Shown here: positions 42,103-63,868 of the stretch, one piece after another
Layout: each line of letters opens with the position of its first letter
How positions within the stretch are numbered: the stretch's first letter is position 1
From: Spironucleus salmonicida
Taxonomy: Eukaryota
Direction of reading: 5' to 3'
Length of the DNA: 64,000 bases
Assembly: GCF_000497125.1 (NCBI RefSeq)
Contig: NC_090596.1
Location: 744,001-808,000, forward strand
The notes under the pieces: generated by a model
Seen by the model: only the letters and a program-made list of their open reading frames with translations
What the model was told of the DNA's origin: nothing
Databases searched by the model: none
Made by a program: the position numbers and the translations under genes

Positions 42103-42848
42103 GGAGGGAGTTTAAGGATTTCCTGATTGTTTTTTGAAATTTATAATATATCATAGAATACTCTAAATAATATTTTAGATAGTTTTTGGAAAACTGTAAA
42201 AAACGGTTTTTTTTGAATATATGTATTTGGGTATCATAAAAAAATCTTGTAGAATAGAGACAAAGAATTGTAAAAAGAATTGGCATTAGTACTGGTAACC
42301 TAGTAAGGTCATGCGCTAATTTATTTACAAAATGGGACTCGACTCGTCGGACTTCAAACCAACGGAGGTGATGCAGTGGGAGTACCGAGCTTACGACTTC
42401 CGTGAGAACGCGCCCCGGTAACTGCGAAGGCAGCAGGAGCGGTGGTCAGCTGCGTCCGGCGACAGTGTGGGCATGTGAGATGCGGTGCCAGCAGGGGACG
42501 ACTTGGCCCAAGCGTGGAAGGTTGCGTTTGCTAGGCTAAAGGCACCAGGCCTTGGCGACAGACGACGGCAGACGTGCCACATAATCCTATCTCCGGTGAG
42601 GCACCATCGCTGGCGATGAAAGCTCACCACAGTCAGCTGCATTCAGGCGGAAGTGTTCATGGGCCAGATTTGCAGGGACTTGAACTGCGACGATATAAAC
42701 AGTAGGTACTCCATTCTTACTTCCAACCGAGCACTGCTCACTATAAATGCTTTCAATATAAATATTGTTCATCCCAGCCCTGTGCGTAACTTACAGCGAA
42801 ACGGTTTCACTGACACCGTAAAGTATACTTATTGACGAGTATAATCTG

Positions 42849-43225
42849 TAAAGTATCCCAGCGCTCCTGGTATTCAATTCTACTGGCTGTATGGCACTGT
42901 GCTGGAGTATTTGTGACGCGTAGCACGAGGTCCCGAACTCGTTAGTTCCGGCCGGGCCTGCCCTTGAAGGCAACCCAAGCTATAGAATTTGAATTCAATA
43001 GAAAGGGGAGCCTCCCACGCGGTGTTCAAGCCGGCGCCAGCAGGAGTGCGGGATAGAACTGCGGCAGAGCCCGGGACCGGGAGTCGGGACGCCGCAACGG
43101 CAAGCCCGAAGAGTGAGATACATAAATACATAATTGAGATCAGTTCGGTGTAAGTGTCCCCAGTAACGTAGGTGAGAGAAACCAAAACATCATTGCTGGA
43201 GCGGGGCGGGAAGGGGAGGGAGTGG
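42849..43225. repeat. IR3 left arm (377 bp), inverted copy of 44226-44602
   Basis: x pairs with 87451-x. Confidence 0.95.
43140..43193 (-). ncRNA. Candidate box C/D snoRNA, copy 1
   Basis: Mirror of 44258-44311. Confidence 0.4.
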
Positions 43226-43518
43226 TGTGGTGTGGAATGGAATGGAATGTGAGGGCAAGGACCCGTGGGCGGGAAAGGTGCGATTTCTGCTCCGGCGCGA
43301 CCTAGGAGTACGAGGCAGGCCTTTGTGCTAGGGCACGCGCGGCAGCTCCAGGTCTGCTAGGACGCGCGAACTTCGGCCGCCAGCCTGCGCCCTGTTTCTC
43401 GTACTGCGCCTTATGTGCTAGTATATAATAACCACCACTTCAACACAGAACTTCCGGACGAAGCTAAAAATAACAACCGTCAGAAGTATCCTATACATAC
43501 CATACCAGCTTTCCACAA

Positions 43519-44193
43519 ATGTTCAACCTGGAGAAAACCAACTACGCCTCGATCCAGCGCAACCGGTCCACGATCGCGCGCTCTCCCCCCAGAGTCACGG
43601 CCCACGTGTCCTTTGTGAACCAGCCTGACGTCCCCGAGCCGTTCGACATAGCCGCCCGCTGCCTCAACTCCAGCAGCGAGGAGCTTCCCGCGCCGATCAC
43701 CTTAGTCCCCGCCTCGTCAGCACCGGAGCCTGTGGCTAGGCTCCGGAAGAACGGCTCTCTCTTCCTCGACCACCGGCAGGCGCGGCGCGGGTCCTTCGTC
43801 GACCTGCCTCTGCCCCGGCTGACGCCCAAGACGCCGCTGGAGGTGTTCCGGGAGATTGCCCTGCTGCCGGTGGAGCCCGTGAACGACCCGAAGGAGACGG
43901 AGTTCCAGGAGGCGTTCGCGTTCGGTAGCGGCGTGAGCCTCCGCAGCCTCGAGATGGGCACGCTCTTCGGCCGCATCCTGTACCACTTCCCGCACCAGAA
44001 GAGGGCGTTCCGGGTGTCGACGAAGGCGGACCGGCTCTTCAAGATCCACAAGCCGCAGCCCAGCGGGATCCTGAACTCCGTGGACCGGATCGTGGAGCAG
44101 GTCGAGATGGCCAACCTGGTGGACAACTACTTCAGGCTGAAGGCGGGGCGGAAGCTGCAGCGGATCCAGAGCGTGCTGGGGATGGACCAGTGA
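43519..44193 (+). CDS. Hypothetical protein, 224 aa (spacer gene of IR3)
   Basis: Strong GC3 bias; AGTGA stop; one residue differs from 59529-60203 (A/D). Confidence 0.8.
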   Translation: MFNLEKTNYASIQRNRSTIARSPPRVTAHVSFVNQPDVPEPFDIAARCLNSSSEELPAPITLVPASSAPEPVARLRKNGSLFLDHRQARRGSFVDLPLPRLTPKTPLEVFREIALLPVEPVNDPKETEFQEAFAFGSGVSLRSLEMGTLFGRILYHFPHQKRAFRVSTKADRLFKIHKPQPSGILNSVDRIVEQVEMANLVDNYFRLKAGRKLQRIQSVLGMDQ

Positions 44194-44225
44194 GGGCGGT
44201 GCTCCCACGGTGACCTGCCGCCGCG

Positions 44226-44602
44226 CCACTCCCTCCCCTTCCCGCCCCGCTCCAGCAATGATGTTTTGGTTTCTCTCACCTACGTTACTGGGGACACTTA
44301 CACCGAACTGATCTCAATTATGTATTTATGTATCTCACTCTTCGGGCTTGCCGTTGCGGCGTCCCGACTCCCGGTCCCGGGCTCTGCCGCAGTTCTATCC
44401 CGCACTCCTGCTGGCGCCGGCTTGAACACCGCGTGGGAGGCTCCCCTTTCTATTGAATTCAAATTCTATAGCTTGGGTTGCCTTCAAGGGCAGGCCCGGC
44501 CGGAACTAACGAGTTCGGGACCTCGTGCTACGCGTCACAAATACTCCAGCACAGTGCCATACAGCCAGTAGAATTGAATACCAGGAGCGCTGGGATACTT
44601 TA
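44226..44602. repeat. IR3 right arm
   Basis: Reverse complement of 42849-43225. Confidence 0.95.
44258..44311 (+). ncRNA. Candidate box C/D snoRNA, copy 2
   Basis: C-rich motif run, then ATGATGT (C-like box) and CTGA (D box); the ATG frame closes after 17 codons. Confidence 0.4.
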
Positions 44603-45369
44603 TAAGTTACTCATTTAGGCAAAAATATAATAATATTTCACTGAAACCACTTTTCTATAATATTTACAATATTGGAACCTTAAAGTATTAACGTACGCTG
44701 CTATGATAATAAGCTTATATTAAGTATCTAGTGATGTAGATAATGTAAATATTTGTTTTTAAGATATCAGATTTTAATTGTTATTTAAAAAGAAACCAGC
44801 AAGCAGTAATGGATAAGGCTTTTTGTTTGATAGCCATATAACTTCTTAAATTTATATACAATATTATTACTTATTGACGAATGATAAAACAAACATTGGG
44901 TGTATTATTATATGTAGTTTTATAGAAAGTAATGCTGTTAGGACTGAAAAAATCTGGTATAATGCACACTCTGAGGTTACCAAATGCCAAAAACACCGTG
45001 TGCTTAAGGTTCCATATTTAGAGTATAGTATTCATAGATTTAAACTTTACACTATATTTGGTTTAATTAGAAAATATTATATTTAAAATATAATATTGTT
45101 TATTTATAGATTAAATACAGTACTTATTTATTTCGTATAAGTAGATAAATAATTTAATAATTTATAATGGGAAATAATTTCATTGAGCTCATTTTGATAA
45201 GTGTATTATTATTTTCTATTTATCATAAAAACTGAACTAATATATTTAAACATTTAGTCTCTACACTTAATTGTATATAATTGTTCAAAAATATAAAGCA
45301 TTATCAAATAAGTATTTCATAACAGTAATATATACTCTGTTTAAATAAACAATAAACTTCACTTCCTTA

Positions 45370-48300
45370 ATGAAACCTCTAACAAGTTATTTTATTTTTT
45401 AGGCTAGGAAGAACATTCTGCTCTCGCTTACACTAGCTTTTCTCCCCATTTTTGTCCCTTTTATTCTTTTTGGTATAGTATAGATCTTTTAATCAGAAGC
45501 TGTACTTCCAAATATCAAGCCTATGAAGCTTGACAAACTGCCGTAACCTGAATTACTTCTATCCCAGAATATGAATCTATACTATTTCTCGTATTCTCCA
45601 CGTACAGAAATAGCTGAAAAATTGATCTAAAATTTATTAGACACTAACGGACTACATGCTGCGAAAGCGAAGGCATTTGACTCGCTTTAATAAGCTTAGT
45701 CTACCTTTGCATCAAAGAATCTATAAGGTGGTTTTAAAAACGTTGATTTAGAATATGCTAGGAAAACTTATTGTCAGGACTAGCAAGCGTACTTGAACAC
45801 GTCTTAGTGCGATTCTTCATTTATCGATATGTATTACGACTCTCTGCCAAATATTTATAAATTCACGTCTTATAACGAAGACGAAGTATTTCTCCATATT
45901 GATGTTACTTAGGACAAGGAAGGTCTAGCAATTTCAATAGTAGTTAACACAACCCTGTTAGATGATGTTGTGAAAAATCATCCAGATTAGATTTCAAAAC
46001 ACCTTAAAAATACAGACAACCCATTCTGGACGTCATACGGTATTACCCTCTAAACTCAAATTGATAAGTTTATCGGAAAAACGCTAGCGAATACCACCCT
46101 TAGCTTTGAAATTTCTTACTTAGAACCAATTTAGGTAGGTGGTTAGTACATACCTGAAAGTATGTTTTTTGGAATGGCTGTATTGGTCGCATATAGCTTA
46201 CAAATTATATTATGTATGATTTTAGCAAACGTTAATAGGGATTAAAATCACGTTGTTTTGCGCCGGTTAGGGGTCTCTGTGGGAATTTTTTGGTGGAAGA
46301 ATTTAATTTACGTTTCTATGCAGATTGTACCGATCAATATTATTACCGTCATTGTATGGCACTACTGTGGGGTGATACCGTTTAGTAACATTGACTTAAA
46401 ATTTTGCTTAATTATAGGAATTACTATTAGCTTTTCAATAGTATCCTTCTCGATGTTAGTTAGTGCATTTTTAGGAAATAAGAAAAGCGCACCTACTCTC
46501 CTTGGTTGCATTATTTGCTTTGGATTTTTACTATTACCAATGACATTTTCGGTATTTCTAGATACCATATTCGATGCTAGTCTACTTTCGTAGTTAGGTG
46601 TTTTTACTATAGTTTCACTTTCCCCTGTGTTTTCTATCTACAGCTTGGTAGATGGATTATTTTTCAGCTAAGAACGTACAGAAACCAATATTCTTGAGCA
46701 CAAATGGAAGGTAAGCTAAAATCTTATCAATTTCAGGTATATATTTACTGATCTTGATGGTTACGCATCTAAACTCCACAGATGCTCTGTCCATGATTCT
46801 CCCCATGGTGATATAATTATTAACTCTATCTGCTACTACTAGGTTCCAATATTTTGGAAATTAGTTTTAATTTCATTGGTACAAAGTTTTGTTTGCTTAT
46901 TTATCATTTCCAAGCTAGTTAGCTATATAAAGTCTGAAAAGGGTCATAGAGGTCTCCCGCCTTGGTATTTCTTGAATCCGTATTTTTATAAAAATATTAA
47001 TATAAAATAAGATGGGTTTTCTGTTAGAAATCTCTAAACCGGGTATTTTGGAAAGAAAAACATATTCATGGATCTAAATTTGGATCTCGCAGATGACTAA
47101 ACTTCAGCCTTGGTAGGTGAAGCAGGTCAAGGTAAGTCTACTATTTTAAGTATCTTGGCAGGTGAAAAGCGATTTTCAAAGGGTTCAGTAAAAGTTCTAG
47201 GGGTTAGTATGAATAGTGATATTAACGCGTATAAAATCAAACCATTTATTGGCTACTGTCCACAAGATTTTAGCAATGTATGGATGAACCTATCTGTGAT
47301 TGAGAACATTACGTTCAGTCTAGGGATTAGATGCTAAATGAGTCGCTGCTAAGTTCCAAATCCTGAAGAGTATATTTAGAAGCTAGTTGTTGACTGCGGA
47401 CTAGGAGACCATAAGGTTCAGAATAGAAAGGCCAAGTCTCTTTCTGGAGGCATGCTCCGCCGCCTTGCTTTCTGTAATGCAATTTCTGGTGCAAAGTTAC
47501 TGCTGTTGGATGAAATTACAGCTGGAGTTGATCCTGTCCTTAAGCGATCAATATGGAAAATAATATAATAAATTCAGGGTTCTGTGCTACTAACATCACA
47601 CGACATGTCAGAAGTTTAAGAAATGGCCCAAACAGTTAGTATAATTAACGGTGGGAAAGCATTGGTTAATAATGTGGAACAATTTAAGCTGAGATAGGTG
47701 AACTTTGCATATGAATTATCTCTGTATAAAAGTGCATAAATTGAAAATTAAGATGTTATAGACCTTCAAGAAGCTTTAAATATACCAATCAAGTTACTAT
47801 CTATTCACCAACATGTTTTGAGAGTTTCTTTAAATGGAAGCACCACATCTATATAACTGGTGTAAATTACTGATAAGGTCGACAGCTTCCTTAAGAGGAA
47901 CTAATTTGATGATTTTTAAGTCAGTAAAACTAGCATTTCATAATACTATGCAAATCTTATTCGCTAAAATTAGGTTCAGAATGAAAGTATATCGTAAAAG
48001 CCGATTAGAAACCCACGCAAAGGTAAAAATTTAGCGCTTTTAACAAAGTCTCTTAAGCATGACTTTAGATTATAAAAAGTTCCTGTTTTCTTTGTTCTAC
48101 TTTTCGCCTCCTTAACCCTTTCAATTCTAACTGCAACTTTCTACTATTTATTTAAGCAGGCTTTTGTAAAACTTCCAGATTTTAATATCATTTAAAGATA
48201 AGAAATTGCTAGCAGTTGTTTCGATACATGTTTAGGTCACGAAAATGATAGTACTGAATGGATGACAAATTGTTTAGTCAACCGTATTCCGAACTACTCC

Positions 48301-50913
48301 TTCCAAAAATATAAAAATGATACAACAAGCTGCCTGTACTATTTATCATGGCTAGGTTTAGATCAAAACTCTAATTTTAAAGAAACTTTTGGTGATAAAG
48401 TATAACATTTTGATTGTCCACAATATTCATTTTAAGTTATTAGTCAAAATTTACATGGCCCAATTCCAAAAATTGACGGATTTAAAAATTATAAATAACT
48501 ATACCTTGACCATAAATACCTTTATGATCCATTAACTCACGAATAAAATGATGGTATTTTACCTTATTTTAAATATTATCATAGTGAAATTATGTCATAA
48601 TAGTGTGGCGAGCTTGATTATTGCATAAAATACTGTTAGGATTTCAGATCTTAGTATAAGAAATGCAATGAAACCTTTGAATATGAAACATGTAAAGAAA
48701 GTTGTGCAAATACTTATAACTGTGTTAAGTAGAATATTAACGTTTTGAATTAGTAAGTTTATTAAGTAAAAACTGTAAAAGAAGGATTATTAAATTATAG
48801 AAACTTCTCCGTTTCGCATAGTTTGAATGTTGAAATAAACAAAACTTCCTACAATGAAAACTAGTTATTTTAAGAGTTTACAAAGAATATGCCATATGCT
48901 ATAATTAATTTGGTAAATGAAACAGATAATGCAATTGATGTTAATATTTCGATGCTGCTTCCCTTTACTGGTCATTCATAATAATATTATACTTTTAATG
49001 ACGCATCTGCAAACTATAACAATTATTATAAATATGACTGCGAAACTGGTATAACTCTATCACATAAGCTAAAAAGCTATTTTGAATAGCAAGGTGTAAA
49101 AGGTGCTAGAGATACATTTAAGCTCTATACTTCAGTTTCTTAAAACTAACCAGATCGCTCTCACGCCTAATTGATGAATATTGGCTCATAGCCTATTGTA
49201 TAATTTACGGCTGCCGTCCTTAGGAAGCATTTATTCAAAAATGCGACAGATTATTCGCCATGGAATTTTAACTATAAATACAATATTTCGGAGATGCCAG
49301 TTTTTGCTACTGTGTCGTAAGAAAATTCTAGCATGACGTTTTCAGATATGCTCACTTCGATGTCCTCGCTTGAATTGATTGTAAGCGGACTATTTCCATT
49401 AGCAATTACCGCTATTCAGGTCGGAAGAGAATACGAGCTAGACGCACAAGTACTTTTCTAGATTCACGGTATCTCACAGTCACGTTGGGCGATCATGACG
49501 CTGATTTACTTTGAAGGTGTGGCCCTGGCATTAACTGCAGGAAATCTACTCCTAGCCTATATAATTTGCCCGTTCATTATAGTTGACTAGTACCTGACCG
49601 TAGCTTTTCACATTCTGTAGTCGCTTACTAGTGTGGTGTCCGGACTCCTCATTGCCATCATAACCAAACGATTGAAGCCCTCTTCTATGATAGCCTTCCT
49701 TGTAATTATTCTATCTCTGGTATTCCAGTTCATGTTCCTTAACACCCGTAAATTTTCATTCGTAATATCTCTTTTTGTGCCTGCTTATGGTTTCGTATAT
49801 CAGCAGTCTTTGACAGTTTGGGGATAATAATACGATTAACTCATGTTTTTATCCTCATTCGTGCTATTCGGTCTTTAGATAGTCCTTATTTTCGTAATAG
49901 TTAACTGGAATCTTATGTTCGGCAAAACTAAGAAATAACAAAGACAGATAGGCGAGGAGACGTCAGCGCTCCTTCATTCGGATAATCTCCAAATTCGCTC
50001 ACTATCTCATTAGTACGAAAAGGGAGTATTTGCAGTCAAATCAGTAGATTTCGACGTGGTTAAAGGTGACGTTTTTGGTCTCTTAGGATCGAACGGGAGT
50101 GGAAAATCCACTCTTCTACACTGCCTCACTGGCATCGTGAGGGGATGCACGGGCAGCGCTCAGTTTGAGGGCTAATAAATTTTGGGCAAGCCTACTATTT
50201 CTGACATCTTAACGATCGTCCCTCAGCGTGACATTTTGTTCCAAAACCTAACAGTACTGGACCATGTCAAATTCTGCATTTCCACTGCGAAAAATCCTCA
50301 TTCCATCAACGAAATCATCAAAGAAATGCAGATTGACTCTATCATCTTCAGAAAGATCGTTTCCCTCTCTGTCGGAGAAAGAAGAAAGGTATCAATCGCA
50401 CTAGCCCTCTGCGCGAATTCGTAAATCATAGCGCTAGATGAGCCCTCGTGCGGCCTCGGGGCGATCACTAAGCTGATCATTTAGGAGTCCGTTGGCAATC
50501 TGCTCAGACAGCAGAAAACGATCATTTTGACCTCGCACGACATGGAAGAAGTGGAGAGCATAGTCAGCAACTGTATTGTCATGAAAGATGGCTCAATTAT
50601 GGCCTAGGGCAGCGTAAACGACCTCAGGAAAACCAGCAAACTTCAATTTGCACTCCTCCTTCAGATTAACGCTGAGGAGTGTAATCTGATTGATTCGATG
50701 TTTAAAGAGCAGAAGTTGTTATTCACTGTAAAGTTTAACCCAATATTGGAATTCTACAGTTTTGAATTCCTGAAGGGTAGCAAAATCCAGCACGTCCTGC
50801 TAGCTTTAATTAAAAGTGGGATGGACCAATTTCCATGGGTTATCGAAGGAATTTAGCTCGAAAGAGTGTTTTTGCAGGTTGTAGGGGAGCAGGACGAGAG
50901 CCTTCTAGAGTGA
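45370..50913 (+). CDS. ABCA-family full-size transporter, ~1847 aa
   Basis: TMD-NBD x2: GEAGQGKST/LSGGM/LLLLDEITAGVDP and GSNGSGKST/LSVGERRK/IALDEPS/TSHDMEE; large extracellular loops. Confidence 0.93.
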
Positions 50914-51231
50914 AATCGCTTACTGCACTTTTCGGGTTCGGGGTGGAAAATTTAATTTTAGCAAAGTATTAAATAAGTAGTTGTGATTATAGTGAGTGCT
51001 GCTGAGGCGGTAGCGCGCTGGTTCGGGTAGGGAGCATTTGGTTGCTAATGCTAATTTACGTATATTCGATTAATTCGTGTAGCTATTATATAATAATAAT
51101 ATTTTTAATTATTTTTTACTTAAATTTTGCAGATTAAAACTTGTACGTTGGGTAGGAAGTGCGGTAAGCGCTGCTTTAGTTAAGCGGGCCTAGAATTATC
51201 TTGAATAGCAGAATTCGTCTCAAAAACCAAC

Positions 51232-52125
51232 TCACTGGCTTCTCATCACCGTCTAACCGCCAAAAACTGTATCCATAGTAGTATCTTTTACGGCCTAGGT
51301 TTAATTTTGAGCAAAGCGACTCTTCCGCTTCAAAAAGTAGCACACCGTGCCCACTGCAATCCCAATAACCAAAATACTGCCAACGGCGATGCCGGCAATT
51401 GCGCCGCCGGATATCCCTCCCTTGACGATATCGTCATCGTCACCCTAGCCCTAGGGAAGGCATAATTTTCCTACCTTGTCGAAACCGTCAGTGCAATTAG
51501 TACAAGACCCACTATCAATTGAGTAACCTTCCATGCATTCCTCGCAAGCAGATGGATCTGTATTGCTACCAGTAACTGGGGCACAAGTCTTGCAATTTAG
51601 TGCAATTAAACTACAATTACACTATGTGACTTGTCCAGTGATTCCACAATTAACACTGCTGCCATTAACGCATGTCTGGTTGAATCCCTGCGTGCACTTC
51701 TCGATGCAGGCCTGCGCGGTGCTCATCTCGGCGTAGACCTTGCACTCGGTGCACTTCGTGGCGCTGGAGCAGGCGGCGCAGGTCACGGGGCAGCGGACGC
51801 AGGTCGTGCCGGCGCAGTGGAGGCCCTTCGGACAGGGGTTCTCGGTGCTGCAGATAGAGGGAATCGGGATGCACTGGCCGTCCACCAGCTGGGTTGAGGC
51901 GTTGCACACGAAGCAGACGCCTATGGTCCGGCATGTCGTGCAGTTGGAGGGGCAGGCATGACAGATCCCCCCGACCAGGAGGAAGCCGTTCCGGCAGCTG
52001 ACGCAAAACTCTAGGTCCGTGCAGAACGTGCAATTCTTGGAGCAGGCTGTGCATACCTGGGGCGGTGCAGCGGGGCAGAACTCGGTTCGGTCGCAGTCGG
52101 TTCCGGAGGTGCAGGGCTTGGACAT
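51232..52125 (-). CDS. Cysteine-rich membrane protein (VSP/CRMP-like), 297 aa
   Basis: Many CxxC motifs; C-terminal GISGGAIAGIAVG...TM, then KRKSR. Confidence 0.88.
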
Positions 52126-53307
52126 TTTTGAAGTGCGAGATATAATTTTCATACCTAATGATAGTAATTTGTGGTTTTAGTTTTTATAATCCGAAATGTG
52201 TTTCTCCGCCACCTATGATATCTAACTAGGTAAACGAGAAACGACGTAACTCTAAAAGTGTAAATGATAAAGTAATGCCTTGATATCCACCTTATAATAA
52301 GCCAAACCCACACTAAAAATAAATTCAACCTATCAGCTATATACTGCTAAAAATACCGTTCTGGCGAGTTTATCCCCTCCAGATAAATCAACAACCCATT
52401 TGACGCTAACTTATATACATTAAAACTTACATATCATCCGCATCCGCAACCGCCCAGGCCGATGCCGCAAAGTCACCCTAGCCCAAGGGTGGCTAATAGC
52501 GGCATGCCCTCCCCAGGCTTCACAGGCCCACCCCAGCAGAGCGCCCTTACCGAGGTTACTTTGGACCGAATTCAGCATCCTGCACGTCCGCAGCAAGGAC
52601 CCGTGAGGCATTTTCGCGGCAAATTCCGGTCTGACGCCCGGGAATATGCGTGTTGGAGGCTCGAGCTGACGCACACTTGACGTCCGCAAATGGCCACGCG
52701 CGATGGCCCAAAAGCTGCATCTCTGCCAACTCCCATGGCCTTGCGCTCGCCGCCGCAGCTGGCGTCCCGGGCGTGCGCGGCCGACTGGCAGAATGGGAAT
52801 TTGGGCCTCAGTGGTGCGCGAAACAGGTGCTTTTCGTGGCCCGGAACGCACAACGTTGCGCGATTATGAGGTCACTGCAGGCGAGCGGGTGCGAAGCTGA
52901 ATGCTGGGGCCAGCTGCCTGTTTAACCACCCGAGCCAGCGCGGTTGCGCGTGCAGGCCCGGGCATCGGAATTGCCAGCGGCATACTTTAGGCTAGATGCC
53001 GTAAACTTGATGGGGCAGCCATTGAGCGCTTGCATGGCAGGGAGCTGCCGATAGTTTCGGCTGCGGTCCAGAAGTGTGTAGTGAGTACTAGCCCATTGGG
53101 AATGCGGAGTCCTCGTTCCGCTTGGGCCAAGCGGTGGGGAGAAGGCGGTTGGTGCAGCGCCAGTGAAATTGGAGCAGGGGTGGAATATAAGCAGGTCCCG
53201 CGGAACGGGCTCCTGGGGGAGAGCGCGGCTGCCGCTGCGTATGGCCAGATATCTCTATATGCCTGTTTAGCTCCAATGCCCGCTGGGCTATAAGCACACG
53301 CCATCGC

Positions 53308-53865
53308 TCACTTCCGCCGCTTCTGGCTCAGCTCGACCAGCTCCTCAAACTTCACGTCGCCGATCTGGAAGACCTCGTCGAAGTTCTCGTTGCTGACGAC
53401 GTTGGCGCCCTTGAGCTGGTTGTACCTCTAGATGAGCTCGTCGGTGCCGATGTCCATGAAGAACTGCTTCTGCACCAGGCTGAAGTCGAGCTTGAAGAAC
53501 TTCAGCGCGGAGAGCAGCAGCCGCTCGTCGATCTGGGCCGGCTGCTGGCGCATGCTGGGGATGCTCATCGGGACCTTCTGCAGCACGTCGGTCGTGATCT
53601 CGAAAAACTGGGGGCAGTCGGACGGCACAAAGGCGGTGCCGAAGTAGGACTTCTTGGCCTTCTTCTGCGCCACGAGCCTCTGGAACAGCGCCTGGAGCGT
53701 GGCCGGGGCGATGTTCAGCTGCTTGGCGAGGTGGGAGTAGTTGATCTTGGCCTGGGAGTTGAAGTACACGTTCTGGTAGATCTTGGTGAGGATCACGAGC
53801 AGCTCGTGGAACTGGAAGCTGCTGAACTAGATGGCGTTGCCGTCGGCGTCGCGGTAGATCTTCAT
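53308..53865 (-). CDS. Probable Myb/SANT-like protein, 185 aa
   Basis: DERLLLSALKFFKLDFSLVQKQFF...ELIQRYNQLK; extreme GC3; AGTGA stop. Confidence 0.7.
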
Positions 53866-54030
53866 TTCCTGAGGGCGAAGCGGGAATTGCGGAGGTGGAA
53901 GTATATAATATTCACTCGTGGGGCAGGGTGCTACGCCTCCGGATACCACCCCGCTCCGGCATCGTCCCAAGCCAGAAACCCAGCACAACATTTATATATC
54001 GCCAAATCCGCCCCGGCCCATTCTCCTTAG

Positions 54031-54615
54031 ATGACCATCGCCATGATGGAGAGCACGCAGAACCAGATGGTCCAGCTCCACAACCAGGTGGTGCTCACGC
54101 TGGCCACCCAGAAGGCCAAGGCCTACCACTTCGATATCAAGCTCAGCGTCCTCCGGCTGCAGCTCAGGTAGCAGCGCGAGGCCCGCACGGAGCCCCCAGG
54201 GCAGCAGCACTTCGGCTCCGCGCAGTTCTTCTCCCAACTCAACCTGAGCCTGCTGGCGCCGCAGACCACGAAGCTGTACTCCGTCAACGAGGTGCTCGAG
54301 TACGCCCCCAGAGTCCGCCAGAGGGCCAGCTTCCTGCAGGGGCTGGTCGACCAGAACAACGACATCGTACGCCAGATCCAGCGGGAGAAGGACCGGGGTG
54401 CGCAGCTCGCGGCGGACCTGGACCTGATCCAGGAGCGGTACCGCGACCAGCGCCAGAAGATCCAGTTCGACGGCCGGCGGAAGTTCCGCACCGAGCACGC
54501 CACCCAGCAGCAGATGCGGCTCTCCAGGGCCACGCAGGAGCTGGGGGACGTGCGGCAGCAGATAAACTGCCTCTTTCTGATGCTCAAGCGGGGCGACTTC
54601 ACCTTCGCTGAGTGA
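54031..54615 (+). CDS. Hypothetical coiled-coil protein, 194 aa
   Basis: Extreme GC3, one TAG-Gln, AGTGA stop. Confidence 0.75.
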
Positions 54616-54749
54616 GCGCGCCGGTTTCGGAATGATCCGTCCCTGGGGGCGCAGGGGCGATATCCTGCCAGCATCGAAACGCGGAACTCAGTTTCGCAAA
54701 CCACAAATATATTCCGAGCGGGATAGCCTGGGTCTGTCCGCAGCTGAAA

Positions 54750-55607
54750 ATGGCAAAACCCTGCGCCTCCGGAGCCGACTGCGACCGCACCGAGTTCTGC
54801 CCCGCTGCACCGCCCCAGGTATGCACAGCCTGCTCCAAGAATTGCACGTTCTGCGCTGACCTAGATGCGTGCGTCAGCTGCCGGAACGGCTTCCTCCTGG
54901 TCGGGGGTACCTGCAAGGCCTGCCCCTCCAACTGCACGATCTGCAAGCGTCTCGACGTCTGCTTCGTGTGCAACGCCTCCACCGAGCTGGTGGACGGCCA
55001 GTGCATCCCGATTCCCTCTATCTGCAGCACCGAGAACCCCTGTCCGAAGGGCCGCTACTGCGCCGGCACGACCTGCTTACCCTGCCCCGTGACCTGCGCC
55101 GCCTGCTCCAGCGCCACGAAGTGCACCGAGTGCAAGGTCTACGCCGAGATGAGCACCGCGCAGGCCTGCATCGAGAACTGCAAGCAGGACTTCAACCAGA
55201 CCTGCGTGAACGGCACCAAGGTGCCCTGCGGTGGTACGGAGCAGATAACGCCCTGCAACTGCAGCATATTCGCCGAGAACTGCCGCACCTGCGCCCCTGT
55301 CAGCAGGAGCGGCGCGGAACCAAGCGAATGCGCCGACTGCATGGCGGGATACGCCATATTCAGGGGATCCTGCACTGTATGTACTGACGGTTTCGACAAG
55401 GTAGGAAAGCTATGCCTCCCCTAGGGCCAGGGTGGCGATGGCGATGACGGCGGTGATGACGATGCCGCTAAGGGAGGGCTATCAGGCGGCGCGATTGCAG
55501 GGATCGTCATCGGCGGCGTGCTGGCAGTCGGTGCGGTCGGGGGCCTCGGCTGGTTCCTGGTGTCCAGAAAGGGCAGGAAGGCGCCCGTGGGGAGGCCCAA
55601 GTGGTGA
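54750..55607 (+). CDS. Cysteine-rich membrane protein (VSP/CRMP-like), 285 aa
   Basis: CxxC repeats; TAG read as Gln continues into GLSGGAIAGIVIGGVLAVGAVGGLGWFLVSRKGRK. Confidence 0.9.
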
Positions 55608-55655
55608 GGTGCGAGTGAGCGTATGTCCGCACTCGGTACAGCCAAGACACGCCGC

Positions 55656-55814
55656 TCACTCCAGGTCCTCCGTGTTGTCAAAGAGCTCGTCCATGATCTG
55701 CATCCGCGCGGCCACGGTCCGATCGAGGGCCTCAGCCCGCCCGTCCGCAGCGGGGGTCGGCCTGGGGAGGAGGGTCCGCACCAGGTCGTCCAGCTCCTTG
55801 AGCTGGGTGTTCAT
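55656..55814 (-). CDS. Small hypothetical protein, 52 aa
   Basis: MNTQLKELDDLVR...DNTEDLE; GC3 bias; AGTGA stop. Confidence 0.55.
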   Translation of the reverse strand: MNTQLKELDDLVRTLLPRPTPAADGRAEALDRTVAARMQIMDELFDNTEDLE

Positions 55815-55897
55815 TCGTAGCGCACATTATTATATCCTAAGCAGTATTGTTGCGCCGAACAATTCCCATCCTGAATTGGGGACACGACCGGTCCAAA

Positions 55898-56053
55898 ATG
55901 ATTAGCCTGGGAAAGCCGGTCATCCGGCCGTGGGGCATCCGCTTCGACAGCGCGCTGGCGACTTGCCGTTCCACCGAGGCAAAGATAGTGCTGCTCAGGT
56001 CCCCGGGCCAGGGGCAGCCGGACTCGGACTCGGAGTATGACGTGACTATCTGA
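55898..56053 (+). CDS. Micro-protein, 51 aa
   Basis: MISLGKPVIRP...DSDSEYDVTI. Confidence 0.55.
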   Translation: MISLGKPVIRPWGIRFDSALATCRSTEAKIVLLRSPGQGQPDSDSEYDVTI

Positions 56054-56346
56054 GTGTTTGTATTGCCTTGCGGGCGCCTCGCTCGATTTTTGCACCAGGG
56101 TCGCATCTCAGTCCGCGCCACAGCCCTCGGAGCCGGTCGGCCGCTGCGGCATTGGGTGCTCGGCGGCCTAACACAAGATAGGTTTCCGCAGAATCTTGTG
56201 GTCGGGCCCTGGGATGCTATATACTCAGAGTAGTGGAAAAACTTTGGCCGTTCTAAATACAGACCACGGATATATTCCCGGAATACTGCCGTTCACTCGC
56301 GACGCAAAAACCGAAAACTCGACTTCAAGCCTGCTACTGTATACAA

Positions 56347-56667
56347 ATGATCTCGGGGTCTCCAGAAATGGGCGTCGACTACTCCGACCTGGACTTCTAC
56401 GAGGACTACGAACCCAGGAGGCAGACCGAGCTGTCCGAGGTGGAGGAGGATATAGTGCTGCCGCAGCAGAGGCAGAAGCAGGAGATGGAGCAGCAGCAGA
56501 TCGCATACCTGGGGACCGTCGCGGAGGACAAGAAGATTCACCGGCAGCTCTCCAGGCAGCTCAAGTACCTCTCCAGCGGCAGCCTGATGGGCAAGATGCG
56601 TTCCAATGGGCGCAGCGTCGAGGACCGCATCGCCCAGTTCCTCGAGGACGAGGACTACGAGTACTGA
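56347..56667 (+). CDS. Hypothetical acidic protein, 106 aa
   Basis: Strong GC3 bias, AAATG start. Confidence 0.7.
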   Translation: MISGSPEMGVDYSDLDFYEDYEPRRQTELSEVEEDIVLPQQRQKQEMEQQQIAYLGTVAEDKKIHRQLSRQLKYLSSGSLMGKMRSNGRSVEDRIAQFLEDEDYEY

Positions 56668-56710
56668 AGGGAGTGAGATTACGCGAGTCACGATTCGGCC
56701 ACGGAGCCCC

Positions 56711-56836
56711 TCACAGCGTGAGCTCGTACTCCCCGTCGCTGGAGGAAGCAGCACCCGCCGCTGGCGCCGGGATGCGCAGCAGCTGGCAGACGTGCGGGGT
56801 CCTGGCCCTGAGCCTGTGAATCACCTGGTGCTCCAT
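56711..56836 (-). CDS. Micro-protein, 41 aa
   Basis: MEHQVIHRL...LLRIP...SSDGEYELTL. Confidence 0.45.
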   Translation of the reverse strand: MEHQVIHRLRARTPHVCQLLRIPAPAAGAASSSDGEYELTL

Positions 56837-56947
56837 TTCAGGGCGGCTGCGAGCGTCTACACTGGGCCGCAGGAAAAGGTGTGGCCGCGCCGATTCCACT
56901 CCACGGGGTCTGTTGCATATTATAGAGCGCGGCGCCCTTTCGCAAAA

Positions 56948-57706
56948 ATGAAGCAGCTGGCCGCGCAAGGCAGCTACCTCCTGTTGGTCAACGACCAGAC
57001 GGTCGTCCTGGAGACACCGACGCTGCAGAACTTCGTTCACGAGCTGGAGTTCGCACCACGCGAGTTCGAGTTCTACTTCCCGTTCCTCAAGCTCCAGACC
57101 GACTCCCGCACAGTGCTCATGCGGCTGAGCGCGGACGGCTCCGTGCTGGAAAAGGCAGACACACTGGACTCCGTGGCGCTCAGCAGGATCGAGAACGGGA
57201 GGCTGTCCGAGGTGGCGTACCAGGGGGCCATCGCCTCGTGCCAGAGCCCGGAGTGCGCGCAGCTCAGGTTCGCTGGCCACGTGCTCTGCGACGGTCTGAA
57301 GATCCATAGCGGGGTCGACTACATTGTTGGGCAGTACCAGCTGTACTTCCTGAGCGGACGGCTGGTGATTCTCCGGCGCGGACGGCAGCACTTCGACATG
57401 GACTACGCTGCCGAGAGGGTGTGCCTGTGCCAAAACGGCGTTGCACTGATCGGGACGGACTACATCGTCCTTGGGGCGTTCGTAAACAAAGCGGAGACTC
57501 GGATCCACGTGGGCAGGAAGTACGCGCAGGTCGTGTTCACGGAGTTCAAGATCATGGGACTTGGCGAGGACGGGTTCGTCTACCAGATCACGCCGGTGGA
57601 CCAGGATCAGGCCTTCGTAGCCGTAGAAAAGGGTGCACTGGACAGGATGTGCTACGGGCTTTGCGCCGACGGGCCGGGACAGCAACTTAGGGCATAGGTA
57701 GAGTGA
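56948..57706 (+). CDS. Hypothetical beta-rich protein, 252 aa
   Basis: AAAAATG start (MKQLAAQG), GC3 bias, AGTGA stop. Confidence 0.75.
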
Positions 57707-57753
57707 GGCTGAATAATTCACACTAGGCACTGGCGCAACAAAGTTTGTAGCGG

Positions 57754-57957
57754 TCAGATGAAGGAGTTTCTGGGCGTGATTTCCTCCAGGATGTCGAAGA
57801 TCTCGCAGTTCTTGATGGAGAACAGGTCGTCCTGCGCGGGGTGGCCCTTGAGGTAGCTCATGATGTCGTTATACAGTTGATGCTGCTATATTGGTTCTGG
57901 CTGGTCCACCGGCTCGAGGGCGTGGGGGTCGGTTCTCATGCACATGTTGGATCCCAT
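57754..57957 (-). CDS. Small protein, 67 aa, possible N-acylation motif (MGSNMC)
   Basis: Code-6 ORF with GC3-rich 3' half. Confidence 0.55.
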
Positions 57958-59154
57958 TTATTGGATACGAGAAAATAAAGATAGATGCCCGAGATTGGGG
58001 ATGATATTTGCTGTAATGTATATTTTTTCTCATTCCACATCTGCGGCTTGTGGATTGTCTACGCCGCGATCCAAGTATCGGTAAAATATTCAATACTTCG
58101 GTAAACTTTTTCGCTGAACATATATTTTCTCGTATTTGCAGCGGAATCCTCCATTTTTCCTTTTCTTCAGGATTCAGTTTCGGAGGTATTGCGTCCCCGC
58201 GCCAACAGCCAAAAGTATACGAACAAGTAAAGTAGTACAAGCATCCGGCCGCGACCCTGCAAAGTTGGTTAGGCCGCGGCTCTCAGTCGCGGAGCAGCAT
58301 CCGATACGAATGGAGCCATTTAAGTATCCTGGGCGCTGCTTGAAATCCCGCGCCGGCTGCACTCCCGAAATCGGTCCGGTTCGAGCTCATTCCATAGGGT
58401 GCTATCTATATCGGCATCGGCCAAGCCCGCTCTTACCCCGTAGAACAGCGGTCTCAGAGTCTTCCGGTAAGGGGAAAACTGTGCATGCGGTGAGGGGCGG
58501 TACCAGCAGGGGACGGCTTGGCCCAAGCGTTGAAAGCCGCGTTTGCTAGACTAAAGGCACCAGGCCTTGGCGACAGACGACGGCAGACGTGCCACATAAT
58601 CCTATCTCCGGTGAGGCACCATCGCTGGCGATGAAAGCTCACCACAGTCAGCTGCATTCAGGCGGAAGTGTTCATGGGCCGGATTTGCAGGGACTTGAAC
58701 TGCGACGATATAAACAGTAGGTACTCCATTCTTACTTCCAACCGAGCACTGCTCACTATAAATGCTTTCAATATAAATATTGTTCATCCCAGCCCTGTGC
58801 GTAACTTACAGCGAAACGGTTTCACTGAAACAGTAAAGTATACTTATTGACGAGTATAATCTGTAAAGTATCCCAGCGCTCCTGGTATTCAATTCTACTG
58901 GCTGTATGGCACTGTGCTGGAGTATTTGTGGCGCGTAGCACGAGGTCCCGAACTCGTTAGTTCCGGCCGGGCCTGCCCTTGAAGGCAACCCGAGCTATAG
59001 AATTTGAATTCAATAGAAAGGGGAGCCTCCCACGCGGTGTTCAAGCCGGCGCCAGCAGGAGTGCGGGATAGAACTGCGGCAGAGCCCGGGACCGGGAGTC
59101 GGGACGCCGCAACGGCAAGCCCGAAGAGTGAGATACATAAATACATAATTGAGA

Positions 59155-59208
59155 TCAGTTCGGTGTAAGTGTCCCCAGTAACGTAGGTGAGAGAAACCAA
59201 AACATCAT
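59155..59208 (-). ncRNA. Candidate box C/D snoRNA, copy 3
   Basis: Same sequence as 44258-44311. Confidence 0.4.
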
Positions 59209-59528
59209 TGCTGGAGCGGGGCGGGAAGGGGAGGGAGTGGTGTGGAATGGAATGGAATGTGAGGGCAAGGACCCGTGGGCGGGAAAGGTGCGATTTCTGC
59301 TCCGGCGCGACCTAGGAGTACGAGGCAGGCCTTTGTGCTAGGGCACGCGCGGCAGCTCCAGGTCTGCTAGGACGCGCGAACTTCGGCCGCCAGCATGCGC
59401 CCTGTTTCTCGTACTGCGCATTATGTGCTAGTATATGATAACCGCCACTTCAACACAGAACTTCCGGACGAAGCTAAAAATAACAACCGTCAGAAGTATC
59501 CTATACATACCATACCAGCTTTCCACAA

Positions 59529-60203
59529 ATGTTCAACCTGGAGAAAACCAACTACGCCTCGATCCAGCGCAACCGGTCCACGATCGCGCGCTCTCCCCCC
59601 AGAGTCACGGCCCACGTGTCCTTTGTGAACCAGCCTGACGTCCCCGAGCCGTTCGACATAGCCGCCCGCTGCCTCAACTCCAGCAGCGAGGAGCTTCCCG
59701 CGCCGATCACCTTAGTCCCCGCCTCGTCAGCACCGGAGCCTGTGGATAGGCTCCGGAAGAACGGCTCTCTCTTCCTCGACCACCGGCAGGCGCGGCGCGG
59801 GTCCTTCGTCGACCTGCCTCTGCCCCGGCTGACGCCCAAGACGCCGCTGGAGGTGTTCCGGGAGATTGCCCTGCTGCCGGTGGAGCCCGTGAACGACCCG
59901 AAGGAGACGGAGTTCCAGGAGGCGTTCGCGTTCGGCAGCGGCGTGAGCCTCCGCAGCCTCGAGATGGGCACGCTCTTCGGCCGCATCCTGTACCACTTCC
60001 CGCACCAGAAGAGGGCGTTCCGGGTGTCGACGAAGGCGGACCGGCTCTTCAAGATCCACAAGCCGCAGCCCAGCGGGATCCTGAACTCCGTGGACCGGAT
60101 CGTGGAGCAGGTCGAGATGGCCAACCTGGTGGACAACTACTTCAGGCTGAAGGCGGGGCGGAAGCTGCAGCGGATCCAGAGCGTGCTGGGGATGGACCAG
60201 TGA
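59529..60203 (+). CDS. Hypothetical protein, 224 aa (spacer gene of IR4)
   Basis: Near-identical to 43519-44193. Confidence 0.8.
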   Translation: MFNLEKTNYASIQRNRSTIARSPPRVTAHVSFVNQPDVPEPFDIAARCLNSSSEELPAPITLVPASSAPEPVDRLRKNGSLFLDHRQARRGSFVDLPLPRLTPKTPLEVFREIALLPVEPVNDPKETEFQEAFAFGSGVSLRSLEMGTLFGRILYHFPHQKRAFRVSTKADRLFKIHKPQPSGILNSVDRIVEQVEMANLVDNYFRLKAGRKLQRIQSVLGMDQ

Positions 60204-60267
60204 GGGCGGTGCTCCCACGGTGACCTGCCGCCGCGCCACTCCCTCCCCTTCCCGCCCCGCTCCAGCA

Positions 60268-60321
60268 ATGATGTTTTGGTTTCTCTCACCTACGTTACTG
60301 GGGACACTTACACCGAACTGA
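60268..60321 (+). ncRNA. Candidate box C/D snoRNA, copy 4
   Basis: Same sequence as 44258-44311. Confidence 0.4.
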
Positions 60322-61518
60322 TCTCAATTATGTATTTATGTATCTCACTCTTCGGGCTTGCCGTTGCGGCGTCCCGACTCCCGGTCCCGGGCTCTGCCGC
60401 AGTTCTATCCCGCACTCCTGCTGGCGCCGGCTTGAACACCGCGTGGGAGGCTCCCCTTTCTATTGAATTCAAATTCTATAGCTCGGGTTGCCTTCAAGGG
60501 CAGGCCCGGCCGGAACTAACGAGTTCGGGACCTCGTGCTACGCGCCACAAATACTCCAGCACAGTGCCATACAGCCAGTAGAATTGAATACCAGGAGCGC
60601 TGGGATACTTTACAGATTATACTCGTCAATAAGTATACTTTACTGTTTCAGTGAAACCGTTTCGCTGTAAGTTACGCACAGGGCTGGGATGAACAATATT
60701 TATATTGAAAGCATTTATAGTGAGCAGTGCTCGGTTGGAAGTAAGAATGGAGTACCTACTGTTTATATCGTCGCAGTTCAAGTCCCTGCAAATCCGGCCC
60801 ATGAACACTTCCGCCTGAATGCAGCTGACTGTGGTGAGCTTTCATCGCCAGCGATGGTGCCTCACCGGAGATAGGATTATGTGGCACGTCTGCCGTCGTC
60901 TGTCGCCAAGGCCTGGTGCCTTTAGTCTAGCAAACGCGGCTTTCAACGCTTGGGCCAAGCCGTCCCCTGCTGGTACCGCCCCTCACCGCATGCACAGTTT
61001 TCCCCTTACCGGAAGACTCTGAGACCGCTGTTCTACGGGGTAAGAGCGGGCTTGGCCGATGCCGATATAGATAGCACCCTATGGAATGAGCTCGAACCGG
61101 ACCGATTTCGGGAGTGCAGCCGGCGCGGGATTTCAAGCAGCGCCCAGGATACTTAAATGGCTCCATTCGTATCGGATGCTGCTCCGCGACTGAGAGCCGC
61201 GGCCTAACCAACTTTGCAGGGTCGCGGCCGGATGCTTGTACTACTTTACTTGTTCGTATACTTTTGGCTGTTGGCGCGGGGACGCAATACCTCCGAAACT
61301 GAATCCTGAAGAAAAGGAAAAATGGAGGATTCCGCTGCAAATACGAGAAAATATATGTTCAGCGAAAAAGTTTACCGAAGTATTGAATATTTTACCGATA
61401 CTTGGATCGCGGCGTAGACAATCCACAAGCCGCAGATGTGGAATGAGAAAAAATATACATTACAGCAAATATCATCCCCAATCTCGGGCATCTATCTTTA
61501 TTTTCTCGTATCCAATAA

Positions 61519-61722
61519 ATGGGATCCAACATGTGCATGAGAACCGACCCCCACGCCCTCGAGCCGGTGGACCAGCCGGAACCAATATAGCAGCATCAGC
61601 TGTATAACGACATCATGAGCTACCTCAAGGGCCACCCCGCGCAGGACGACCTGTTCTCCATCAAGAACTGCGAGATCTTCGACATCCTGGAGGAAATCAC
61701 GCCCAGAAACTCCTTCATCTGA
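61519..61722 (+). CDS. Small protein (copy of 57754-57957)
   Basis: MGSNMCMRTDP...TPRNSFI. Confidence 0.55.
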
Positions 61723-61769
61723 CCGCTACAAACTTTGTTGCGCCAGTGCCTAGTGTGAATTATTCAGCC

Positions 61770-62528
61770 TCACTCTACCTATGCCCTAAGTTGCTGTCCC
61801 GGCCCGTCGGCGCAAAGCCCGTAGCACATCCTGTCCAGTGCACCCTTTTCTACGGCTACGAAGGCCTGATCCTGGTCCACCGGCGTGATCTGGTAGACGA
61901 ACCCGTCCTCGCCAAGTCCCATGATCTTGAACTCCGTGAACACGACCTGCGCGTACTTCCTGCCCACGTGGATCCGAGTCTCCGCTTTGTTTACGAACTC
62001 CCCAAGGACGATGTAGTCCGGCCCGATCAGTGCAACGCCGTTTTGGCACAGGCACACCCTCTCGGCGGCGTAGTCCATGTCGAAGTGCTGCCGTCCGCGC
62101 CGGAGAATCACCAGCCGTCCGCTCAGGAAGTACAGCTGGTACTGCCCAACAATGTAGTCGACCCCGCTATGGATCTTCAGACCGTCGCAGAGCACGTGGC
62201 CAGCGAACCTGAGCTGCGCGCACTCCGGGCTCTGGCACGAGGCGATGGCCCCCTGGTACGCCACCTCGGACAGCCTCCCGTTCTCGATCCTGCTGAGCGC
62301 CACGGAGTCCAGTGTGTCTGCCTTTTCCAGCACGGAGCCGTCCGCGCTCAGCCGCATGAGCACTGTGCGGGAGTCGGTCTGGAGCTTGAGGAACGGGAAG
62401 TAGAACTCGAACTCGCGTGGTGCGAACTCCAGCTCGTGAACGAAGTTCTGCAGCGTCGGTGTCTCCAGGACGACCGTCTGGTCGTTGACCAACAGGAGGT
62501 AGCTGCCTTGCGCGGCCAGCTGCTTCAT
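61770..62528 (-). CDS. Hypothetical protein (copy of 56948-57706)
   Basis: Mirror copy with T>P and A>E differences. Confidence 0.75.
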
Positions 62529-62639
62529 TTTTGCGAAAGGGCGCCGCGCTCTATAATATGCAACAGACCCCGTGGAGTGGAATCGGCGCGGCCACACCTT
62601 TTCCTGCGGCCCAGTGTAGACGCTCGCAGCCGCCCTGAA

Positions 62640-62765
62640 ATGGAGCACCAGGTGATTCACAGGCTCAGGGCCAGGACCCCGCACGTCTGCCAGCTGCTGC
62701 GCATCCCGGCGCCAGCGGCGGGTGCTGCTTCCTCCAGCGACGGGGAGTACGAGCTCACGCTGTGA
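62640..62765 (+). CDS. Micro-protein (copy of 56711-56836)
   Basis: Mirror copy in IR4. Confidence 0.45.
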   Translation: MEHQVIHRLRARTPHVCQLLRIPAPAAGAASSSDGEYELTL

Positions 62766-62808
62766 GGGGCTCCGTGGCCGAATCGTGACTCGCGTAATCT
62801 CACTCCCT

Positions 62809-63129
62809 TCAGTACTCGTAGTCCTCGTCCTCGAGGAACTGGGCGATGCGGTCCTCGACGCTGCGCCCATTGGAACGCATCTTGCCCATCAGGCTGCCGC
62901 TGGAGAGGTACTTGAGCTGCCTGGAGAGCTGCCGGTGAATCTTCTTGTCCTCCGCGACGGTCCCCAGGTATGCGATCTGCTGCTGCTCCATCTCCTGCTT
63001 CTGCCTCTGCTGCGGCAGCACTATATCCTCCTCCGCCTCGGACAGCTCGGTCTGCCTCCTGGGTTCGTAGTCCTCGTAGAAGTCCAGGTCGGAGTAGTCG
63101 ACGCCCATTTCTGGAGACCCCGCGATCAT
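62809..63129 (-). CDS. Hypothetical protein (copy of 56347-56667)
   Basis: Mirror copy with S>A and V>A differences. Confidence 0.7.
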   Translation of the reverse strand: MIAGSPEMGVDYSDLDFYEDYEPRRQTELSEAEEDIVLPQQRQKQEMEQQQIAYLGTVAEDKKIHRQLSRQLKYLSSGSLMGKMRSNGRSVEDRIAQFLEDEDYEY

Positions 63130-63578: not shown

Positions 63579-63661
63579 TTTGGACCGGTCGTGTCCCCAA
63601 TTCAGGATGGGAATTGTTCGGCGCAACAATACTGCTTAGGATATAATAATGTGCGCTACGA

Positions 63662-63820: not shown

Positions 63821-63868
63821 GCGGCGTGTCTTGGCTGTACCGAGTGCGGACATACGCTCACTCGCACC

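Follow-up and report, generated by a model that had tools for sequence, protein, structure and literature searches.

Evidence for concerted evolution and probable GC-biased gene conversion in four palindromes of a 64-kb stretch of Spironucleus salmonicida DNA

How can the two arms of a palindrome stay the same while the sequence directly beyond them diverges, and why should one palindrome core occur twice with arms of very different length? Both questions are raised by a stretch of 64,000 nucleotides from Spironucleus salmonicida (NCBI RefSeq assembly GCF_000497125.1, contig NC_090596.1, positions 744,001 to 808,000 of the forward strand), which we refer to as a whole as the window and in which all positions below are counted from its first base. 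We located inverted repeats (IRs) with a seed-and-extend scan and with a sensitive self-BLAST of the window, which were concordant, and found four near-perfect examples, IR1 to IR4 (Table 1). The arm length of IR4 (at least 3765 bp) is a lower bound, as its right arm stops at the end of the window, which thereby also fixes the outer end given for the left arm. We consider it likely that IR3 is an asymmetric partial copy of an IR4-type centre with eroded edges, and that the arms are homogenised by gene conversion which favours G and C.

All genes in the window were translated with NCBI table 6, in which TAA and TAG encode glutamine. Long open reading frames (ORFs) appear when the window is read in this way, including that of an 1847-aa ABC transporter which contains 82 in-frame TAA/TAG codons. 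These long genes, together with the identity of a spacer gene to an S. salmonicida database record, indicate that the window is nuclear DNA of this diplomonad, a parasite of fish.

Arm grouping and base composition at the repeat edges

The four arms of IR3 and IR4 have 377 bp in common. When these were compared with each other the distance was 0 within each palindrome and 2 between palindromes; the arms pair by palindrome, and both variable sites of the alignment (2/2) are mirrored, with the pattern AA in IR3 and GG in IR4. The strings AGCTTGGG and CGCGTCAC were present on both IR3 arms, and AGCTCGGG and CGCGCCAC on both IR4 arms. Independent mutation cannot mirror changes from one arm to the other, so sequence information must have passed between arms after IR3 and IR4 separated. 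A reading of the window made from the sequence only had claimed that the same 224-aa gene and inner arms occur in both palindromes, that the arms of IR4 measure at least 3.7 kb and those of IR3 377 bp, and that diagnostic differences are common to both arms of one palindrome and differ between palindromes. We recovered the gene and the inner arms where it had put them, measured arms of at least 3765 bp and 377 bp, and found the diagnostic strings exactly at the claimed places. The same reading had proposed concerted evolution, a proposal which the pairing of the arms supports at the level of sequence, as do the GC steps at the arm edges, a jump in composition within the tubulin-tyrosine-ligase-like (TTLL) gene and a diverged remnant beside IR1, described below. 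The evidence for long-term concerted evolution is better outside IR3 and IR4 than in the four-arm grouping.

Base composition changed abruptly, and exactly at the repeat edges. GC content was 0.69 in the IR1 arms, 0.58 in the IR2 arms and 0.575 in the IR4 arms, against 0.35 in the IR1 spacer and 0.28 in the IR2 spacer. The noncoding parts of the arms had a GC content of 0.52-0.70 and five stretches of single-copy intergenic DNA one of 0.21-0.26; the flank past 44602, beyond the right arm of IR3, had 0.224. Across the window, with duplication scored within it, the duplicated bases (n = 24,422) had a GC content of 0.614 and all others (n = 39,578) one of 0.36. The spacer of IR3 and IR4, which is itself present in two copies, had a GC content of 0.63, whereas those of IR1 and IR2, which occur once, are AT-rich; such a high value is consistent with prolonged exchange between the two copies. 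In a 1052-aa ORF at 29905-33063 a unit of 1020 bp is repeated in tandem approximately 2.9 times, at 99.8-99.9% identity. The G/C share at third codon positions (GC3) of this gene was 0.215 in its unique 79-codon start and 0.768 in the repeated part, which had an overall GC content of 0.577, with flanks at 0.24. For the S. salmonicida genome, duplicated regions have been reported at 44.7% GC and the rest at 30.7% (PMC9509377).

The step can be followed within a single gene at IR1, where TTLL crosses the inner edge of an arm. Of the 53 codons which precede the edge on the spacer side, 14 had G or C at the third position, against 43 of the 47 which follow it within the arm (0.26 to 0.91), and GC3 was 0.958 across the whole arm part. 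Glutamine was encoded by TAA or TAG at 7 of 15 positions outside the arm and at 0 of 7 inside, and the share of Gly, Ala, Arg and Pro went from 0.235 outside to 0.328 in the arm part. The Pfam TTL match (residues 118-410) runs continuously across the arm edge. TTLL codons 1-353 are located in the IR1 spacer, and the other IR1 arm carries an identical 190-codon fragment of the TTLL 3' end (11962-12534). A search of the right half of the IR1 spacer for a decayed remnant of the TTLL 5' part gave no tblastn match at E ≤ 10, so this inner edge looks like a true breakpoint.

Outside its perfect arms IR1 continues as a diverged, AT-rich remnant, in which 178 of 340 aligned columns were identical (52%; z = 7.2; the score was reached by 0 of 500 shuffles). 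A small gene of approximately 125 aa has its 5' part outside the arm on each side and reads into it (5725-6105, plus strand; 16014-15640, minus strand). The products of the two copies were identical at 58 of 132 positions overall, with the last 23 residues, which lie inside the arms, identical and about one-third identity outside. Perfect arms of 69% GC thus abut a diverged AT-rich continuation, which youth of the palindrome cannot explain and ongoing homogenisation with sharp limits can. Judged by these flanks, the palindromes are old, their perfect arms notwithstanding. Similarity was at chance or weak at the inner spacer edges of all four palindromes, in the outer flanks of IR2 and in most 100-bp bins of the IR1 outer flank. 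Both of the mismatches between the IR2 arms lie 25 bp or less from the outer edge, a position which fits the edges being reached least often by conversion.

Origin of the IR3 copy and competing explanations

IR3 and IR4 lie within a direct repeat (42475-44602 and 58490-60612) with 98.7% identity over 2128 columns. A MAFFT alignment of the two copies contained 27 differing columns: 12 in the outer-left 374 bp, of which 9 fell in the first 61 bp; 2 in the left arm and 2 at the mirror positions in the right arm; 6 substitutions in the spacer; and 5 from a single indel, an extra TGTGG unit in IR3 at the junction of left arm and spacer. No counterpart of the outer-left segment exists on the other side of IR3. 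The segment was identical at 362 of 374 positions to the left arm of IR4 and equally to the right arm (12 differences each), and the two IR4 arms are identical to each other there. The part of the IR4 arm which is homologous to the IR3 arm showed no codon periodicity. The bases directly inside the arms are T,T on the left and C,C on the right in both palindromes; as this asymmetry is common to IR3 and IR4, the right arm of IR3 must have been passed on with the copy rather than regenerated in place.

The sequence-only reading had explained the difference in arm length by decay: IR3 would once have been long-armed like IR4, and its right arm past 44602 would have lost its partner and decayed into AT-rich sequence. 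We think this unlikely, although part of it holds. From 44603 onward, 33 of 60 bases were identical in register to IR4 from 60613 onward, with no indel over approximately 58 bp. A score of 33 was reached by about 3 of 200,000 shuffles (reported fraction 1.5e-5) and by none of 9,491 natural GC-matched 60-mers compared with the IR4 stretch, the maximum of which was 31. Semi-global alignment of the first 60 bp past 44602 beat 500 of 500 shuffles, and the 13-mer motif TTTCASTGAAACC is restricted within the window to homologous places (7 matches against 0.13 expected). Decay is also the direction suggested by these 60 bp, in which G/C in IR4 faces A/T in IR3 at 13 sites and the reverse holds at 6, and the low GC content of the flank is what unconverted DNA should have. 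IR1, moreover, shows that decayed AT-rich extensions of palindromes occur in S. salmonicida.

Beyond this short stretch, however, the expected partner was not found. From +60 to +760 past 44602 similarity to IR4 was not above chance (80/300, 165/300 and 231/300 shuffles reached the score), and a strict-scoring local alignment past 44602 gave a score of 21, with shuffles at 19.5 ± 2.5. The left flank of the IR3 copy showed no similarity to IR4 (338/500, 88/500, 61/500 and 259/500 shuffles reached the score). The segment at 42475-42848 is equally partnerless and has nevertheless kept its close identity to IR4 and a GC content of 0.503, so decay would work only if IR4 had maintained the outer part on the left and failed to do so on the right, although both are equally homologous to it. 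Had the right arm once been as long and been worn away by mutation, the left outer 374 bp should have gone the same way; it is simpler to suppose that IR3 began as an asymmetric copy. The claim that the two cores stand at different stages of decay is therefore kept in part: the short homology is real and recognisable over approximately 58 bp, but decay by point mutation leaves the asymmetry unexplained, and the description is better recast as an asymmetric partial copy with eroded edges than as a worn-down long-armed palindrome.

Under this favoured explanation the IR3 duplicate would comprise approximately 2.13-2.19 kb copied from an IR4-type centre, made up of 751 bp of left arm, the spacer of about 1 kb and approximately 377-435 bp of right arm. 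With so short a right side to the copy, only 377 bp of IR3 would pair as arms. Frequent arm-to-arm gene conversion would keep both arms of each palindrome identical, and the IR3 and IR4 copies would also exchange sequence, less often. If conversion tracts seldom reach the ends of the shared segment, the edges would drift, as is seen in the 9 differences of the first 61 bp on the left (15%) and the 27 of 60 on the right (45%). Conversion would be strongly GC-biased, such that stretches with a partner rise to a GC content of 0.5-0.7 and partnerless ones are found at about 0.21-0.36.

A stronger form of this explanation, for which we judge the case to be evenly balanced, is that conversion between repeats in cis is so GC-biased that it acts as a composition switch. 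Partnered sequence would be driven to a GC3 of 0.92-1.0 with an accompanying shift towards Gly, Ala, Arg and Pro, the converted domain would have a self-sharpening edge one codon wide, and sequence which drops out of it would fall back to about 22% GC and diverge freely.

Several points weigh against conversion with a GC bias and against the asymmetric copy. The grouping of the arms depends on two informative sites 61 bp apart, and one conversion tract in one palindrome could yield both mirrored sites. Illumina base correction of the assembly may also have erased some true differences between arms (PMC9509377). The bias itself is read from composition, and the 22 substitutions between the IR3 and IR4 copies have no net direction: IR3 has the weak base at 6 of 12 sites in the outer-left segment and at 3 of 6 in the spacer. 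TTLL codons 1-240 have a GC3 of approximately 0.55-0.85 despite lying in single-copy spacer. Presence of a partner in the window leaves some GC-rich DNA unexplained, as the blocks at 52129-54746, 3001-4750 and 39251-39750 have a GC content above 0.5 and no partner inside the window; these blocks are either repeated at other places in the genome or break the link between repetition and high GC content. At the right edge of IR3, identity falls from 100% to 55% within one base (44602/44603), which is steeper than simple erosion predicts. When the 60-mer was moved along both strands of the entire window, 33/60 was also attained at three AT-rich places unrelated to it, and the match past 44602 counts because its register was fixed beforehand.

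A quite different possibility is that the duplications are young and that the arms are identical merely because they are recent, with no conversion. The low mismatch counts are what such a history would give (0/3751 in IR1, 2/1677 in IR2 and 0/377 in IR3), and there are just two mirrored sites to explain. We nevertheless consider it very improbable. Mirrored arm differences are impossible by independent mutation, and the steps in GC and GC3 within single genes imply that hundreds of changes were fixed in both arms after the edges formed. Recency would also fail to account for IR1 flanks of 52% identity beside perfect arms, and for a divergence which is far greater at the edges of the IR3/IR4 repeat than within it.

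An artefact of assembly or polishing, through chimeric long reads or short-read correction over multi-mapping arms, has slightly less in its favour still. The reference was Illumina-corrected (PMC9509377), and such a step can wipe out small differences between repeats. Polishing cannot create composition steps or diverged flanks, however, and scattered differences between arms remain. The spacers consist of 1-5 kb of unique, gene-bearing DNA, and the 224-aa gene was independently recovered in the 2014 assembly (P0001). Normal read coverage has been published for the two largest duplicated regions of the genome, though not for the loci described here (PMC9509377).

The least probable explanation is that the GC-rich arms did not arise by enrichment of host sequence in place but have a mobile or foreign origin, for example as a transferred island or a foldback-type element, since although the arms lie far above the genome in GC content and most of their genes are orphans, the arms of IR1, IR2 and IR4 are mutually unrelated, with no common sequence in the self-BLAST of the window, Pfam found no transposase, integrase or reverse transcriptase domain in 29 ORF translations, the TTL domain is unbroken over an arm edge and the IR2 arms contain a host tRNA-Ile.

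Genes of the spacers and arms

The positions of the palindromes and of the features within them are listed in Table 1.

Table 1. Inverted repeats of the window and associated features.
Feature	Position	Strand	Description
IR1	arms 6034-9784 / 11961-15711		spacer 2176 bp; mismatches 0/3751
IR2	arms 16578-18254 / 23312-24988		spacer 5057 bp; mismatches 2/1677
IR3	arms 42849-43225 (+) / 44226-44602 (-)		spacer 1000 bp; mismatches 0/377
IR4	arms 55476-59240 (+) / 60236-64000 (-)		spacer 995 bp; mismatches 9/3770 aligned, 2 at inner edge
IR1 diverged AT-rich remnant	5694-6033	+	partner 15712-16051; outside perfect arms
TTLL gene	9211-10845	-	544 aa; crosses IR1 inner edge at codon 354
tRNA-Ile(UAU)	17848-17921 and 23645-23718		one per IR2 arm
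tRNA-Phe(GAA)	19521-19595		in IR2 spacer
RPS4	20296-21087		in IR2 spacer
IR3 outer-left segment	42475-42848		GC 0.503 (same in IR4); homologous to both IR4 arms
IR3 left arm	42849-43225	+	377 bp, noncoding, GC 0.554; 2/377 mismatches to each IR4 arm
IR3 spacer	43226-44225	+	1000 bp with 224-aa orphan gene (probable) at 43519-44193
IR3 right arm	44226-44602	-	377 bp
Right edge of IR3 copy (putatively eroded)	44603-44660		diverged, homologous in register to IR4 60613-60670 over ~58 bp
IR4 left arm	55476-59240	+	at least 3765 bp; 106-aa ORF and 252-aa gene; inner 1.3 kb noncoding
IR4 spacer	59241-60235	+	995 bp with 224-aa orphan gene (probable) at 59529-60203
IR4 right arm	60236-64000	-	ends at window end

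The two copies of the 224-aa ORF in the IR3 and IR4 spacers differ at a single residue (A73D), and the IR4 copy is 100% identical to the C-terminal 224 residues of a 318-aa uncharacterised S. salmonicida protein in UniRef. GC content at codon positions 1, 2 and 3 was 0.62, 0.43 and 0.92, a strong coding periodicity, and GC3 reached 1.0 in parts of the gene. This ORF is likely to be a real gene, judging by its codon structure. The upstream 94 codons of the 318-aa model (43237-43518 and 59247-59528) showed no periodicity (0.53, 0.61 and 0.50 at the three positions) and contain an in-frame TGA in the IR4 copy, for which reasons the 224-aa ORF is the better gene model; the 318-aa model in the database seems to be over-extended.

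We found no Pfam family for the 224-aa protein, and its only relative was its own 318-aa record, in searches which covered 5.8 billion clustered proteins and, with HMMER, 1.84 billion representatives. The ESM Atlas yielded nothing beyond bacterial clusters at scores of 0.85, which are too low to pursue, and a fold predicted from the single sequence by AlphaFold2 was unusable (mean predicted local distance difference test of 36.3). A 366-aa ORF of the IR4 arm had its own 252-aa record as its sole match. The genes of the IR4 arms are orphans, as are most genes in the palindrome arms.

The first reading had placed the 5' part of TTLL in the IR1 spacer and RPS4 with tRNA-Phe in the IR2 spacer, correctly in both cases, and had suggested that crossover between arms would flip these spacers. 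Such inversion is expected from the structure. As the opposite IR1 arm carries an identical fragment of the TTLL 3' end, a flip of the IR1 spacer would rebuild the same gene.

Two genes for Cys-rich membrane proteins, at 51232-52152 (minus strand) and 54750-55607 (plus strand), lie head-to-head next to IR4 as a diverged inverted pair with 80% identity over 768 bp and 91% over 472 bp, and a 2.6-kb GC-rich block (0.58) lies between them. Only the last 132 bp of the second gene fall within the visible IR4 left arm, and since the gene overlaps the start of the arm, IR4 may extend further. The seven interior mismatches between the IR4 arms (56353-57898; mirror 61578-63123) fall into three tight groups, at 56353/56441, 57409/57455/57477 and 57877/57898. 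All seven set A/T against G/C, with the A/T base on the left arm in six of them.

A short-period tandem array at 36259-36598, seen as a ladder of self-matches with offsets in multiples of 3, sits in the most AT-rich part of the window (36001-38000, GC 0.216).

Relation to known systems and meaning of the finding

The closest known system is that of the primate sex-chromosome palindromes with GC-biased gene conversion. In the X and Y palindromes of primates, arm-to-arm conversion is GC-biased and the arms are more GC-rich than their flanks (PMC8981503, PMC3723533). As in those palindromes, the inverted arms of the window surround a unique spacer and exceed 99% identity; the arms evolve in concert, here with 0 differences within and 2 between palindromes; and the arms are more GC-rich than flanks and spacer, with the exception of the two-copy IR3/IR4 spacer. 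Crossover between arms can invert the spacer in the primate palindromes as well, and for P6 of the human Y chromosome frequent conversion has been described alongside rare inversion (PMC3723533); for Spironucleus inversion would be expected from the structure of the repeats.

The differences from primates are considerable. The Spironucleus arms measure 0.4 to at least 3.8 kb, and the shift in composition, from 0.21-0.35 to 0.58-0.69 with GC3 as high as 0.96-1.0, is extreme and has edges which are sharp to within one codon. The GC bias in Spironucleus is deduced from composition, and not from polarised substitutions. The host is a diplomonad, and to our knowledge no sexual cycle has been described for S. 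salmonicida.

Among diplomonads, Giardia muris has seven identical pairs of VSP genes, arranged head-to-head or tail-to-tail and separated by coding sequence (PMC7641422). These resemble the palindromes of the window in the type of host, the identical inverted copies and the gene-bearing interval, and gene conversion was invoked there too (PMC7641422). The IR3 arms, in contrast, are noncoding, and the arms of IR4, IR1 and IR2 hold orphan genes, a zinc-finger gene, the TTLL 3' part and a tRNA rather than genes for surface antigens; overlap with a gene for a Cys-rich membrane protein is limited to the outermost stretch of the IR4 arm. The available part of the G. muris report makes no mention of a GC step at the arm edge (PMC7641422). 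We also considered a Cys-rich surface protein gene as the repeated unit and rejected it; the Cys-rich genes at 51232-52152 and 54750-55607 adjoin the palindrome. A foldback or terminal-inverted-repeat element was likewise rejected, as the arms have no common termini and no transposition-enzyme domain occurs in the 29 ORF translations.

In S. salmonicida itself, duplications of at least 95% identity make up 19.2% of the genome, and gene conversion has been named for its regions of Cys-rich genes (PMC9509377). The GC-rich duplications reported there are the same phenomenon in bulk in the same organism. The available text of that paper contains no steps at arm edges, no jumps of GC3 within genes and no GC-biased conversion as a cause (PMC9509377), and the strings 'palindrom' and 'inverted' are absent from the 2014 and 2022 (PMC9509377) genome papers, supplements aside. 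We found no earlier link of Spironucleus or diplomonads with biased gene conversion in the literature covered, which takes in few subscription journals. What is notable here is the size and sharpness of the composition effect, together with its occurrence in a protist.

The arm pairs are substrates for rearrangement and could invert spacers with essential genes, namely RPS4, tRNA-Phe and the 5' part of TTLL. It should also be noted that the 2.1-kb direct repeat of IR3 and IR4 could cause loss or duplication of the intervening 16 kb, and that a 756-bp inverted pair could invert approximately 17 kb.

The window offers a compact natural experiment on GC-biased conversion beyond animals, fungi and plants, in which single genes straddle a repeat edge and third-codon GC goes from approximately 26% to approximately 91% at one codon. 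GC-biased conversion would supply a cause for the published, unexplained GC richness of duplicated S. salmonicida DNA. It would also be a caution to annotators and phylogeneticists, as a non-adaptive process would then shape protein composition in such arms. If conversion does act as a composition switch, the palindromes would be a readable record of past conversion sites and would provide a natural system in which GC-biased conversion could be measured in an organism without known meiosis.

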